This document shows, in pieces, positions 3,317-33,063 of a stretch of 54,373 nt of DNA. The notes under the pieces were generated by a model. That model saw nothing but the letters and a program-made list of their open reading frames with translations. It ran no database searches and was not told the DNA's origin. The translations under genes were made by a program, and so were the position numbers. Source of the DNA: Candidatus Hydrogenedentota bacterium (lineage in GTDB: Bacteria > Hydrogenedentota > Hydrogenedentia > Hydrogenedentales > SLHB01); assembly GCA_034408725.1 (NCBI GenBank), contig JAWXCN010000173.1, positions 1 through 54,373 of the forward strand, written 5' to 3'. Position 1 is the first letter of the stretch; each line of letters starts with the position of its first letter.

Positions 3317-4483
3317 ATGGCCAAAAAGACAGTTAACGTCGCTCTGATCGGGACAAAGTTCATGGGCAAGGCGCACAGCAACGGGCTACGCCAGGTTGCG
3401 CATTTCTTTGACATGCCGTATGAGCCAGTAATGAAAGTGTTGTGCGGGCGCAATCCGGCGGAGACCAAGGCCGCCGCGAAGAAGTTCGGCTGGGAAGAGG
3501 CGAGCACTGACTGGCGGGCGGTGATCAATCGCCCCGACATCGACATCGTCGATATCAGTTCGTCGGGCGAAATGCATCATCCGATGGCGATTGCCGCGGC
3601 GAAAGCGGGCAAGCACATCATCTGCGAGAAACCACTCGCAAACACCTTGAAGCAGGCGGAACAGATGACCGACGCGGTGAAGAAAGCCGGTGTCAATCAC
3701 ATGTGCGGGTTTTCGTACAGGTTCGCGCCAGCGGTCGCGACGATCAAGAACATGATCAAGAAAGGCGATCTCGGCACAATCTTCCATTTCCGCGCATGCT
3801 ACCAACAGGATTGGATCGTCGATCCTGAGTTTCCGCTGAACTGGCGGCTACAAAAGAAAACCGCAGGTTCCGGAACGCTGGGCGACATTGGCGCACATAT
3901 AACGGATATGTGCCACAACCTGATCGGGCCTATCGACAGCGTTTGCGCAACGATGCGGACGTTCATCACCGAACGTCCTCTTGCCGACTCGTCCGCGACC
4001 ATCGCCGCAAAATCCGGGCACAAGAAAAGCGCGAAGAAAGGCAAGGTCGATGTCGACGATGCCGCGATCTTCCTGGCCACCATCAAAGGCGCGAAAACGC
4101 TCGCGACATTCGAAGCAACGCGTTTTGCGCCGGGCCGCCGCAACTACAATTGCATTGAAATCTACGGTAGCAAGGGCAGCGTGATCTGGAATCAGGAAGA
4201 CATGAACGTCTTCGAGTACTACAATTCCGCGGACCCCGGCCACCTCCAAGGGTTCCGCCGCGTACATGCAACCGACCCCGGACATCCCTACGGCGATGCC
4301 TGGTGGCCCAGCGCGCATATCATCGGCTACGAACACCTGTTCGTCCACGAAATGTACGACTTCATCAACCAGCTCGGGAAAAAGAAGGTCACCTATCCGA
4401 CGTTCGAAGACGGCCTGGCATGCCAGCAAGTGCTCGACGCGGTGGAACGCAGCAGCAAATCGAAAAAATGGGAAAAAGTATAA
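3317..4483 (+). CDS. Gfo/Idh/MocA family NAD(P)-dependent oxidoreductase
   Basis: GTKFMGKAH Rossmann start, CEKP and GDIGAH motifs; strong RBS. Confidence 0.93.
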   Translation: MAKKTVNVALIGTKFMGKAHSNGLRQVAHFFDMPYEPVMKVLCGRNPAETKAAAKKFGWEEASTDWRAVINRPDIDIVDISSSGEMHHPMAIAAAKAGKHIICEKPLANTLKQAEQMTDAVKKAGVNHMCGFSYRFAPAVATIKNMIKKGDLGTIFHFRACYQQDWIVDPEFPLNWRLQKKTAGSGTLGDIGAHITDMCHNLIGPIDSVCATMRTFITERPLADSSATIAAKSGHKKSAKKGKVDVDDAAIFLATIKGAKTLATFEATRFAPGRRNYNCIEIYGSKGSVIWNQEDMNVFEYYNSADPGHLQGFRRVHATDPGHPYGDAWWPSAHIIGYEHLFVHEMYDFINQLGKKKVTYPTFEDGLACQQVLDAVERSSKSKKWEKV

Positions 4484-4562
4484 GAGAATTCAACCACGGG
4501 GACACGGGGAACACGGGGAATCAAAACGACGATATGTTCCTCGATCCCCGGCAACCGTGGAG

Positions 4563-4963
4563 ATGCAAGTCATGGATGGACGTTTACTGGCCGAAGCACC
4601 CGAGGAGTTGATCGACAATGTGCTGACGGCGGCGACCGAGGTGCATCGGGAACTTGGCCCGGGACTGTATGAAAACTTTTTCAGGCCGCACTCTTCATTG
4701 AACTAGGGCTCCGTGGGCTCAAAGTCGCGTGCGAGGTCCCTGTAAACGTAACGTATAAAGGCCACGATCTCGGAATTGGTTTGCGCGCCGATCTGGTGGT
4801 CGAAGAATAACTGCTCCTCGAACTGAAAGCGGTGAGCGAATTAACGGACAATCATTTGGCGCAGATCATCACGTACCTCAAGTTGCTTGGGCTAAAACGC
4901 GGTTTTCTGCTCAACTTCCACGAGCGATTGCTGAAGGACGGTATGAAGCGAGTTTCGATCTGA
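4563..4963 (+). pseudogene. GxxExxY family (PD-(D/E)XK-like) protein, frameshifted with an internal stop
   Basis: EVHRELGPGLYE, then a frameshift at ~4671-4681 into FQAALFIELGLRGLKVACEVPVNVTYKGHDLGIGLRADLVVEE*LLLELKAVSELTDNHLAQIITYLKLLGLKRGFLLNFHERLLKDGMKRVSI*; TAA at 4808-4810. Confidence 0.9.
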
Positions 4964-5021
4964 CCACTGGGACACGGGGAACACGGGAAATTGAGCTCGA
5001 AATGCCATACAGGAAGGAAAG

Positions 5022-5159
5022 CATCACGACATTAATGGCAGCGATTTAATTGTTTGCTGGAAGCACGATTGGCAGGATTGTCCGCTGGAGGTGTTGGAGC
5101 TTAAGTCAGCGATCAAGCAGCTACCGAACAAATGTAGTTTTCCAGGGGTGATGAGGTGA
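5022..5159 (+). pseudogene. C-terminal remnant of a putative PD-(D/E)XK-like nuclease domain
   Basis: Reads HHDINGSDLIVCWKHDWQDCPLEVLELKSAIKQL with no start codon (in-frame TGA at 4992). It resembles the 'HD...DxIVCWxHxW..CP.EVxEL' tail I recall from uncharacterised endonuclease-like proteins. Confidence 0.6.
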
Positions 5160-5229
5160 TATGAGGTTTTCGCATTGAATTCCCCGTGTCCCCCGTGTCC
5201 CCGTGGTTTATTAAAGGGAGGAGACTTCA

Positions 5230-6195
5230 ATGAAACTTGGTTTTTTGACAGTCATGTTCAGCGACTTGCCGCTGAAGAAAGTGTTGGAAGTGATTCGGCC
5301 GCTCGGTTTGCAAACAGTCGAATTGGGTACCGGCAATTATCCTGGTGACGCGCATTGCAAGACGAAGGAGTTGTTGGCCTCGAAACCCAAGCGCGATGAA
5401 CTGCTCGCAATGATTAGAGGTGAGAAGCTCGAAATCAGCGCGCTCAGTTGCCATGGCAACTGTTTGCACCCCGATGCAGGCTTCGCGAAAAAAAGTATCG
5501 AGGTGCAGACCGACACGATTAAACTCGCGAACCTTCTCGGAGTAAAAGTCGTCATCGACTTTTCCGGCTGTCCCGGTTCGGACGAGAAAGCACAAAAGCC
5601 GAGTTGGGTAACTTGCCCGTGGCCACCCGATTTTCTCGAAGTGCTTGATTGGCAGTGGTCAAAAAAGGTGATTCCGTATTGGACGAAACAGGCGAAGTTC
5701 GCTGCGGACAACGGCGTCAAAATGGCCTTCGAGGCGCATCCCGGCTTTGTCGTGTACAACCCGGAAACCTTGCTGCGCCTGCGCAAAGAATGCGGCAGCA
5801 ACATCGGGGCGAATTTCGATCCGAGCCATTTCTTCTGGCAGGGCATTGATCCGGTCAATGCAGTGCGCGCGATGACCGGCAAGGCGATCTTCCACGTCCA
5901 CGCAAAGGATTCGCTGGTCTACGAACAGAACGCGACGGTCAACGGCGTTCTCGACACGAAACATTATGGAGACGAGCTCAACCGCTCATGGTTGTTCCGC
6001 ACCGTCGGTTATGGCCACAGCATCGAATGGTGGAAAGATTTCGCATCGACATTGCGCATGGTCGGTTACGACGGCCCGATCTCGATCGAACACGAAGACT
6101 CGATGATGTCCCGTACCGAGGGCCTCAAGAAAGCGGTTGATACCCTCAAGCAATGCCTGATCTTCGACAAGAAGTCGGCGATTACGTGGGCGTAA
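5230..6195 (+). CDS. Sugar phosphate isomerase/epimerase (AP endonuclease 2 TIM barrel)
   Basis: E.HPG, NFDPSH, HVHAKD and SIEHED metal-binding motifs; RBS GGAGGAG. Confidence 0.92.
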   Translation: MKLGFLTVMFSDLPLKKVLEVIRPLGLQTVELGTGNYPGDAHCKTKELLASKPKRDELLAMIRGEKLEISALSCHGNCLHPDAGFAKKSIEVQTDTIKLANLLGVKVVIDFSGCPGSDEKAQKPSWVTCPWPPDFLEVLDWQWSKKVIPYWTKQAKFAADNGVKMAFEAHPGFVVYNPETLLRLRKECGSNIGANFDPSHFFWQGIDPVNAVRAMTGKAIFHVHAKDSLVYEQNATVNGVLDTKHYGDELNRSWLFRTVGYGHSIEWWKDFASTLRMVGYDGPISIEHEDSMMSRTEGLKKAVDTLKQCLIFDKKSAITWA

Positions 6196-29043: not shown

Positions 29044-29200
<157 letters not shown>

Positions 29201-32999: not shown

Positions 33000-33063
33000 C
33001 ACCACGAAGGCACGAAGTATACGAAGAAAAACCTGAGATCATATTCTTCGTGCTTTCGTGGTG
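33000..33063. repeat. Intergenic inverted repeat of CACGAAG units
   Basis: CACCACGAAGGCACGAAG (33000-33017) pairs with CTTCGTGCTTTCGTGGTG (33046-33063), 17/18 complementary. Confidence 0.8.

Follow-up and report, generated by a model that had tools for sequence, protein, structure and literature searches.

The unit between the oxidoreductase and isomerase genes

The window analyzed here, a stretch of 54,373 nucleotides from a Candidatus Hydrogenedentota bacterium (contig JAWXCN010000173.1), carries a unit of three repeats and two broken genes at positions 4492-5208. The unit lies in the 749 bases that separate a Gfo/Idh/MocA oxidoreductase gene from a co-oriented gene for a xylose-isomerase-like TIM-barrel protein, and the first of its two genes belongs to the GxxExxY (PDDEXK_3) family of small proteins with a PD-(D/E)XK nuclease fold. 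Comparison with the rest of the genome, with relatives of the same order and with distant phyla revealed that the unit is one of many elements of common anatomy, in which a small gene lies between inverted arrays of a seven-nucleotide word (7-mer). According to the protein tree, the word travels with the lineage of the encoded protein.

The repeat has the layout AACCAC-GGGG-A-CAC-GGGG-AA-CAC-GGGG, that is, three CACGGGG 7-mers behind a CCAC end. Its three copies, R1 and R2 in forward and R3 in inverted orientation (Table 1), are placed and oriented as in the original prediction, on which coordinates, identities and shuffle test agree. Pairwise identities are 29/30 (R1-R3), 27/30 (R1-R2) and 26/30 (R2-R3), and an 18-nucleotide core has three matches in the window with up to three mismatches, against 0.04 expected; three matches were reached in 0 of 100 shuffles. 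R1 and R3, 30 nucleotides each and 97% complementary, thus provide a terminal stem around a small open reading frame (ORF), of the size known from the intervening sequences (IVSs) of 23S rRNA. The complementarity of R2 and R3 extends inward past the repeat proper, to 40 nucleotides at 83%, and encloses the stump of a foreign gene. Just inside R1 lies a degenerate inverted copy of two repeat units, with a score that none of 500 shuffles attained; it may be what is left of a tight hairpin located upstream of the GxxExxY gene.

The GxxExxY gene is decayed, as had been proposed, and in the absence of an intact frame of about 125 codons it is a pseudogene. Positions 4673-4960, read with an X at the in-frame TAA (4808-4810), match TIGR04256 (E 1.1e-27; 96.7 bits, cut-off 35) and PF13366 (E 1.6e-27; 96.6 bits, cut-off 22). 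For the 44 N-terminal codons (4572-4703), a match to profile positions 2-26 appears only in a different frame (E 9e-4), which places a frameshift near 4676-4685. Readable D and ELK residues are kept (RADLVVEE, LELK) and the region of the motif tyrosine is disrupted (GLYENFF). The last base of the stop codon is shared with R2, so that gene and middle repeat do overlap. Across 16 diverse members of the family, G28, G30, E33, Y36, D73, E83 and K85 are invariant. The model of an intact member (predicted local distance difference test, pLDDT, 93.5) shows a generic PD-(D/E)XK fold with Cas4 SSO0001 (Z 7.7), 3ijm (7.5), the BpuSI nuclease domain (7.4) and Hjc (5.9) as neighbours; no PDB match by sequence and no Foldseek match at E <= 0.001 were obtained. 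Internal stops occur in only 7 rows of the table of GxxExxY loci. Judged by conserved residues and model, the protein looks functional where it is intact. The function of PDDEXK_3 is given as unknown in the available text of a survey of the superfamily (PMC3424549).

The stump between R2 and R3 shares 81% identity with the C-terminal 36 residues of a protein designated P0002 and about 83% with P0001, members of a family for which no Pfam model was found. For an AlphaFold model with a core pLDDT of about 90, the nearest solved folds are solely PD-(D/E)XK nucleases, with weak scores (NucS Z 6.3, VRR_NUC 5.6, FokI cleavage domain 5.4), and the residues P80 D81 ... E101 F102 E103 are invariant in the family. 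The "nuclease remnant" of the original prediction is therefore real as a gene stump and moderately supported as a nuclease, by its fold neighbours and its PD...EFE motif. P0002, the longer relative, has two PF18780 "homing endonuclease associated repeat" units ahead of the nuclease-like domain, which would accord with a selfish-nuclease nature of this family. For a possible N-terminal remnant of the family in G004, a genome of the same genus, only a weak match was obtained (E 0.019, two-sequence database). PADLOC returned no defence-system model for GxxExxY or P0001.

Both flanking genes have the predicted identity by profile matches. The upstream gene is levoglucosan-dehydrogenase-like and falls under the equivalog cut-off of NF052479 (E 3.9e-117, 391 bits, cut-off 650), and directly outside R3 the downstream gene retains an intact ribosome-binding site (GGGAGGAG) and ATG. 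Among the ORFs of the window, profile searches found no further one of a known family between the two host genes. Rfam 15 covariance models gave no match at E up to 1 in 4300-5400; the same interval contains no promoter-like and one terminator-like site, not above shuffles.

Table 1. Features of the unit and its flanking genes (positions in the window)
Feature	Position	Strand	Remarks
Upstream host gene, Gfo/Idh/MocA oxidoreductase	3317-4483	+	PF01408, PF22725 and PF02894 matches
R1, forward arm	4492-4521	+	AACCAC, then three CACGGGG units with 1-2-nucleotide linkers
Degenerate inverted copy of two repeat units, just inside R1	4535-4550	-	Local alignment score 10
GxxExxY (PDDEXK_3) pseudogene	4572-4963	+	Frameshift; in-frame TAA; stop TGA 4961-4963
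R2, second forward arm	4963-4991	+	Abuts the GxxExxY stop codon
C-terminal stump of second small gene	5025-5132	+	About 36 codons (...DLIVCWxHDWQDCPLEVLELK...)
R3, inverted arm	5179-5208	-	Right end of the unit
Downstream host gene, xylose-isomerase-like TIM barrel	5230-6195	+	Sugar isomerase/epimerase family; PF01261, E 7.3e-33

Heptamer arrays across the genome

The repeat is not confined to the window. In the genome (G000; 5.17 Mb in 280 contigs, 92% complete), a 28-mer of the repeat has 11 matches with up to three mismatches, against none in the control. A strict two-unit rule returned 29 copies of the GAAG type, 17 of the GGAG type and 13 of the GGGG type, compared with 9 unrelated singletons in the reversed genome. 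With 13 words allowed, 111 arrays were found against 2 in the control, so the unit is one of many repeat-bounded elements. The most frequent words are CACGAAG (37 arrays), CACAGAT (19), CACGGAG (18), CACGGGG (17) and CGCAGAT (14), followed by a few others. An arm consists of a variable outer stretch of 2-10 nucleotides, CC(A/G)C, and three C(A/G)C-NNNN 7-mers with linkers of 1-3 nucleotides, and the lineages of elements differ in the 7-mer (GGGG, GGAG, GAAG, AGAT, CGAT and others).

Arrays pair as > ... < (forward, then inverted) within 1.5 kb in 26 cases, with the same word in both arms for 19 of these pairs; 17 of the enclosed loops measure at most 150 nucleotides and represent gene-less hairpins. 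Such hairpins and solo arms of the same 7-mers are dispersed in intergenic DNA. Since only 52 of the 111 arrays lie inside open frames of at least 150 codons, compared with 280 of 300 random positions (59/111 versus 20/300 outside), the arrays are enriched in non-coding DNA. The window itself holds a solo GAAG-type array (CACCACGAAGGCACGAAGTATACGAAG) at 33003-33030.

Two loci of G000 have a more complex build. In C276 (4581-4943), a CGCAGAT-type forward array lies within the loop of a CACGGAG-type hairpin, which suggests that elements nest in one another's loops. In C35 (46700-47250; L013:700-1250), a stretch of about 118 bp occurs in five tandem copies, and each copy comprises an AGAT-type and then a GGRG-type forward array, without inverted partners.

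Other hairpin or palindrome families are also abundant on many contigs (ACATCCCCCTAAATCCCCCTTCAAAGGGGGACTT, GGAGGGCGGGTTTTCCAACCCGCCATT, CGGGAGGGCGCGCGTCCCCGCGCGC, ...GCGCCTTGGAGTGCGGTAGCGG...), and in total the genome contains 349 inverted pairs with arms of at least 20 nucleotides and loops of at most 2.6 kb. One further example in the window (29044-29200) is built of inverted hexamer arrays, TCGTGC/TCGTAA, with arms of 47 nucleotides, 94% complementary, around a loop of 58 nucleotides; these hexamer hairpins recur on many other contigs.

Arrays and GxxExxY genes

All five GxxExxY loci of the genome lie within inverted arrays, each with its own 7-mer. The genes are broken in the window copy (word GGGG) and in C24 (GAAG) and intact in C56 (GGAG; layout > gene < <), in C272 (CCGAT; the element spans the upstream TAA to the downstream ATG) and in C113 (AGAT; hairpins on both sides). 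Of 30 GxxExxY loci from 30 other genomes of the order, 23 reach a score of 15 or more for flanking inverted repeats; the maxima in shuffles were 8-15. The seven misses include two loci whose arms were found by other scans (L046, L052), two with a one-sided array (L064, L068) and one that was partly masked (L072).

The association reaches far beyond the order. From Chloroflexi, Planctomycetota, Acidobacteriota, Deltaproteobacteria, Bacteroidota, Calditrichia, Leptospirales, Gammaproteobacteria, Actinomycetota and others, 80 loci were drawn, and 41 of the 79 that were testable score at least 15; this sample is biased to one subfamily of GxxExxY, because an alignment of six sequences of that subfamily served as the search seed. 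Arms of the same build recur in these loci (ATCCACGAAG..., ATCCGCAGAT..., AACCGCGAAT...). The family of the second cargo gene was used as a control, and only 1 of its 59 loci reaches the score of 15. When arrays of at least three units within 200 nucleotides were called in a single pipeline, they were present on both sides of 60 of 115 GxxExxY loci and of 0 of 60 loci of the control family. The remaining GxxExxY loci have a one-sided array (20), no array nearby (13) or no callable word (22). The survey of GxxExxY flanks proposed with the original prediction thus did find repeat enrichment; the role of generic cassette boundary assigned there to the repeats was not borne out, and they proved instead to consist of three cognate 7-mers each and to be linked with a single gene family.

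The polarity of the nearest arrays was determined for the 60 loci: > GENE < occurs in 33, < GENE > in 11, and > GENE >, the form of the window, and < GENE < in 8 each. In the < GENE > form the gene stands between two whole hairpins, which are direct repeats of each other in L046, L047 and L054. At four loci (L082, L123, L128 and L140; a Desulfobacterales metagenome-assembled genome (MAG), Nitrosomonas halophila, a Prevotella MAG and Novipirellula) the GxxExxY gene was observed within or next to long series of whole hairpins in tandem (> < > < ...), which recur about every 110 nucleotides.

Co-variation of word and protein

For 33 proteins from 31 genomes, a maximum-likelihood tree was labelled with the 7-mers, which had been assigned by eye. 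The labels (15 states) require 18 changes on the tree, compared with a minimum of 21 and a mean of 24 in 300 shuffles, and the last two letters of the 7-mer require 4 changes against a shuffle minimum of 9. By this phylogenetic measure, the word travels with the protein lineage.

The two arms of an element also differ from each other in a characteristic way. Mismatches between arms amount to 36 of 896 positions in the 7-mer cores and 67 of 187 in the linkers; in a stricter test, in which the word was taken from the upstream arm only and one pair was used per locus, the corresponding values are 41/657 and 29/137 (p 4e-7). The mismatches show no wobble bias on the coding strand (46 of G.U type, 46 of A.C type and 67 of transversion type). 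Because mismatches fall in the linkers and wobble bias is absent, it is the repeated word rather than the pairing that is kept.

Turnover at orthologous sites

The orthologous oxidoreductase-isomerase junction was compared in 30 relatives in which both flanking genes are adjacent. It is empty in 12 of them, with 18-61 bp and no repeat. Decayed GGGG-type arms occupy the junction in G009 (84 bp) and G012 (108 bp), which belong to other genera, and the 247-bp junction of G004 retains a complete right arm and a worn one on the left, together with a short, unrelated ORF. G002 and G003, again of the same genus as the window, have an AGAT-type hairpin instead. Two genomes from two genera harbour a pair of genes for an MntA-like nucleotidyltransferase and a HepT-like RNase (PF01909 + PF01934): in G014 (L031:211-847) the pair is followed by a GGGG-type right arm, and in G001 (L015:2503-3291) it accompanies a small ORF, without an arm. 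Small selfish modules have a hot spot in this junction, and the empty, remnant and alternative-cargo alleles that a mobile cassette should leave among relatives all exist.

Similar variation was seen at other sites. At the C56 site, the element of G001 includes its gene, G004 has arms and a gene in decay, and G002 has a solo AGAT-type arm, while nothing clear was found in G003; at the C272 site, G004 has arms without a gene. Counts of GGRG unit dimers in five congeners are 54, 28, 34, 6 and 8, those of CRCAGAT unit dimers 54, 12, 76, 23 and 7, and the controls are 0. Among these five genomes, no clear relation between the presence of an intact cognate gene and the number of arrays was apparent.

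Contigs of the DNA runs X1-X4 were also inspected. Record 9 of X2 covers 4157-5800 with 0 differences, and no joint in the contigs skips the cassette; the single joint, at 4068-4316 with 238 other letters between, falls in the upstream gene.

Proposed mechanism and alternatives

The balance of evidence tips modestly towards a reading of window positions 4492-5208 as a composite, dead copy of a selfish element that itself encodes the nuclease by which the 7-mer arrays are recognized. Within an element the six copies of the word are alike, whereas linkers drift and the word changes from element to element, which argues that a specificity factor is encoded by the element itself. The nuclease is proposed as this array-binding factor because it is the only candidate gene present. 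As both genes are broken, the window unit is a fossil. The original prediction had noted that neither a transposase nor a target duplication is visible. The latter observation stands; the missing enzyme is most likely the GxxExxY nuclease, whose protein clades co-vary with the 7-mer.

The mechanism that we infer from anatomy, gene association, co-variation and turnover would start with the binding of the GxxExxY nuclease to its own 7-mer arrays and a predicted cut at the arms or close to them. The unit would then be copied or moved by host repair or recombination, either to new sites between genes or into gene-less hairpins of the cognate type, a homing- or transposon-like movement without target duplication, and gene-less hairpins would be non-autonomous or decayed derivatives. 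For the window, an older GGGG-type hairpin (R2/R3), common to other genera, may have received a foreign nuclease gene in its loop; next to it, a GxxExxY unit could then have settled together with a forward arm of its own (R1 and its vestigial partner), giving the recurrent > GENE > < form, after which the foreign gene would have been mostly deleted and both genes decayed.

Several observations weigh against this reading. The correlation between protein and 7-mer would follow from co-inheritance of gene and arm and by itself does not prove binding specificity. Arrays appear to persist, and perhaps to multiply, without an intact cognate nuclease, since arrays of the GAAG, GGGG and AGAT types outlast intact genes: the genome contains 37 GAAG and 17 GGGG arrays, yet only broken genes of both types (those of C24 and of the window), in G002 the only AGAT-type gene beside 76 dimers of this type is split, and G003 has arrays and no gene was found. 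By the pairing rule used, 59 of the 111 arrays are solo, and the fivefold tandem array of C35, with two types of forward arm, is not explained by a hairpin model. The right arm at the junction is common to four or five genera, which implies long residence and would also suit a domesticated or host-useful role. The contigs of X1-X4 show the filled allele only, and rare empty alleles are invisible in contigs. Inspection by eye of about 15 element ends revealed no consistent target duplication: only C56 has a 5-bp direct repeat (AAACT), and the window, C24, C272 and L056-L058 have none.

An IVS-like RNA element is an unlikely alternative, though the strongest of those considered. The arms would form a stem of about 30 bp in the transcript, RNase III would cut it, and the ORF would be excised or insulated so that the cistrons of the operon remain functional; spread at the DNA level would be a separate process. 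Minimum-free-energy and centroid RNA folds of 4470-5240 do close with the R1-R3 pair (z -2.43; 0 of 20 shuffles as stable). The GxxExxY gene is mostly co-oriented with its neighbours (upstream and downstream flanks ++ 41, -+ 21, +- 8, -- 5; 115 loci), and the upstream arm is purine-rich on the coding strand in 50 of 72 loci with an upstream array. The stem, the three heptamers and the RNase III excision of the Coxiella IVS, as given in the available text of PMC4990558, are a precedent. However, the arms differ in 21-36% of linker but only 4-6% of core positions, a sign that words rather than pairing are conserved, and the lack of wobble bias, the partnerless arrays and the forward-only arms of C35 point in the same direction. 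The idea of the original prediction that the outer repeats pair in the mRNA is, according to the folding model, physically plausible for R1 and R3 but secondary to the selfish nuclease element.

Improbable, too, is the other model put forward originally, in which the repeats are integron-like recombination sites at which an unlinked recombinase captures, stacks and loses assorted small genes. Part of it holds: the GxxExxY gene is bracketed by R1 and R2 in direct orientation and an unrelated second gene by R2 and R3, so that cargo is indeed stacked and decaying, and alternative alleles occur, among them the MntA/HepT pair that adjoins the right arm in G014. The < GENE > form of 11 of the 60 loci, with whole hairpins on both sides that are direct repeats in L046, L047 and L054, resembles ORF-attC arrays, and in C276 a hairpin of one type has another nested in its loop. 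On the other hand, the cargo is overwhelmingly one family, the family of the second cargo gene lacks such arms elsewhere (1/59 by score, 0/60 by arrays), and a protein clade that tracks the 7-mer is not predicted by a common trans-acting recombinase. In addition, the elements are dispersed over 111 places instead of being arrayed by one integrase, and the right end (GTGGTTTATT) does not match the attC core, GTTRRRY.

Slimmer still is the chance that the arrays are host-useful intergenic repeats (mRNA stabilizers of the repetitive extragenic palindromic (REP) kind, protein-binding sites or G-rich structures) with GxxExxY as a secondary lodger or host factor, for although the right arm is retained across several genera, many arrays are gene-less or solo, and the inverted tandem heptamers of Xanthomonas are reported as stable and discussed as quadruplex-forming in the available text of PMC4692102, the junction is empty in 12 of 30 relatives, copy number varies up to about 10-fold among congeners, several mutually exclusive 7-mer types, each homogeneous per element, share one genome, and the tie to one gene family holds across many phyla.

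The selfish element with its own nuclease, if it is correct that the nuclease recognizes the arrays, would represent an enzymatically new type of minimal mobile element. A large part of the short repeats between genes in Verrucomicrobia-, Planctomycete-, Chloroflexi-, Acidobacteria- and Bacteroidota-like genomes would then be accounted for, and small nucleases whose 7-bp specificities have diversified in nature would become available as a family. Thousands of genomes contain GxxExxY/PDDEXK_3 genes, annotated with the function "unknown". In annotation, the arrays could be flagged as element ends and not as regulatory motifs or spurious ORFs.

Comparison with known systems

In the literature searched, with subscription journals outside its coverage, no description of GxxExxY genes inside 7-mer arrays was found. 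The single arms described here are direct triplications and not palindromes; in REP elements with their RAYTs (REP-associated tyrosine transposases), each unit is an imperfect palindrome. Several known systems are similar in part. The convergent tandem heptamers of Xanthomonas and Nostoc are intergenic 7-nucleotide arrays, often in inverted pairs, whose position is kept between related species; they are described as G-quadruplex-forming simple repeats with contiguous units and no linkers, and the terms "S23" and "four helix" are absent from the available text, so that no gene association is made there (PMC4692102).

Integron cassettes are likewise promoterless small ORFs next to hairpin-forming imperfect inverted repeats, which stack and have toxin-antitoxin neighbours. 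The 111 arrays are, however, dispersed over many contigs and not arrayed at an integrase (an integron integrase was not searched for), the cargo is essentially one family (60/115 versus 0/60) instead of a diverse set, and the words of the arms co-vary with the cargo protein. Homing endonuclease genes, including that of the PD-(D/E)XK enzyme I-Ssp6803I (PDB 2ost), share with the present elements a small nuclease gene alone in a selfish unit, filled and empty alleles, and decay of the gene after fixation. In contrast to them, the unit described here has no intron or intein and no Rfam match, brings its own inverted arms and occupies many unrelated sites per genome.

Correia/NEMIS elements, which belong to the miniature transposable elements with inverted repeats (MITEs), are processed in mRNA by RNase III. 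Like MITEs, the present elements are short and bounded by inverted repeats, with many intergenic copies, most of them gene-less and a few with a gene, and a copy number that varies between close species. They differ from MITEs and DDE insertion sequences in that the only gene of intact copies is PDDEXK_3, with no transposase of a known family, and in that no consistent target duplication of fixed length is found at the ends. Their ends are arrays of three repeated words, and many 7-mer variants share one architecture.

The closest described system is the 23S rRNA IVS with its S23p or four-helix-bundle ORF, known from Coxiella, Leptospira and Salmonella. According to the available text of PMC4990558, the Coxiella IVS has a 28-bp terminal stem and three tandem GACAGAT heptamers upstream of a decaying S23p ORF; it is excised by RNase III and its origin is still debated. 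The likeness comprises the terminal stem of about 28-30 bp, the tandem 7-nucleotide units (three CACGGGG in the window) in the arm upstream of a small ORF in the loop, and the frequent decay of this ORF; IVSs have long been regarded as selfish, with unexplained mobility. The differences are that the ORF here encodes a PD-(D/E)XK nuclease (PDDEXK_3) and not a four-helix bundle, that the three 7-mers of each arm are set apart by linkers of 1-3 nucleotides while IVS heptamers are contiguous, and that the site lies between protein-coding genes and not in helix 25 or 45 of 23S rRNA. A role of the RNase III type may be possible for the window unit.

Genes of the four-helix-bundle (S23p) family were also found outside rRNA in the order. 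Examples in G000 are C254:9843-10375 and C161:7415-7968, which match TIGR02436 ("23S rRNA IVS protein"), and the loci were numbered L228-L257. Their heptamers are contiguous and element-specific (GGGTATC, GATTTTG, GTCTGGA, AATTGAC and others), and at some loci the two arms differ at the same position in every unit. Of these loci, 24 of 29 lie between inverted arrays (score at least 15), all with a period of 7, and the GxxExxY and four-helix-bundle families therefore share one architecture. Both gene families thereby gain a concrete anatomy, a small gene between inverted arrays of a cognate 7-mer, with a clade that tracks the word in the case of GxxExxY; the S23p ORFs of IVSs have been a puzzle for decades. 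A wider reading, tentative and in our view possible rather than probable, would make GxxExxY proteins the sole enzyme of a new class of minimal mobile elements that span phyla, in which a nuclease of about 125 residues reads its own 7-mer tandem arrays at two inverted ends and moves the unit with no duplication of the target; S23p hairpins would belong to the same superfamily, of "tandem-word hairpin elements", and rRNA IVSs would be only its rRNA-resident members. The feature in the window is real and more general than originally supposed, and it is best filed as a variant of the selfish ORFs bounded by inverted repeats, to which the IVSs are the nearest described relatives.

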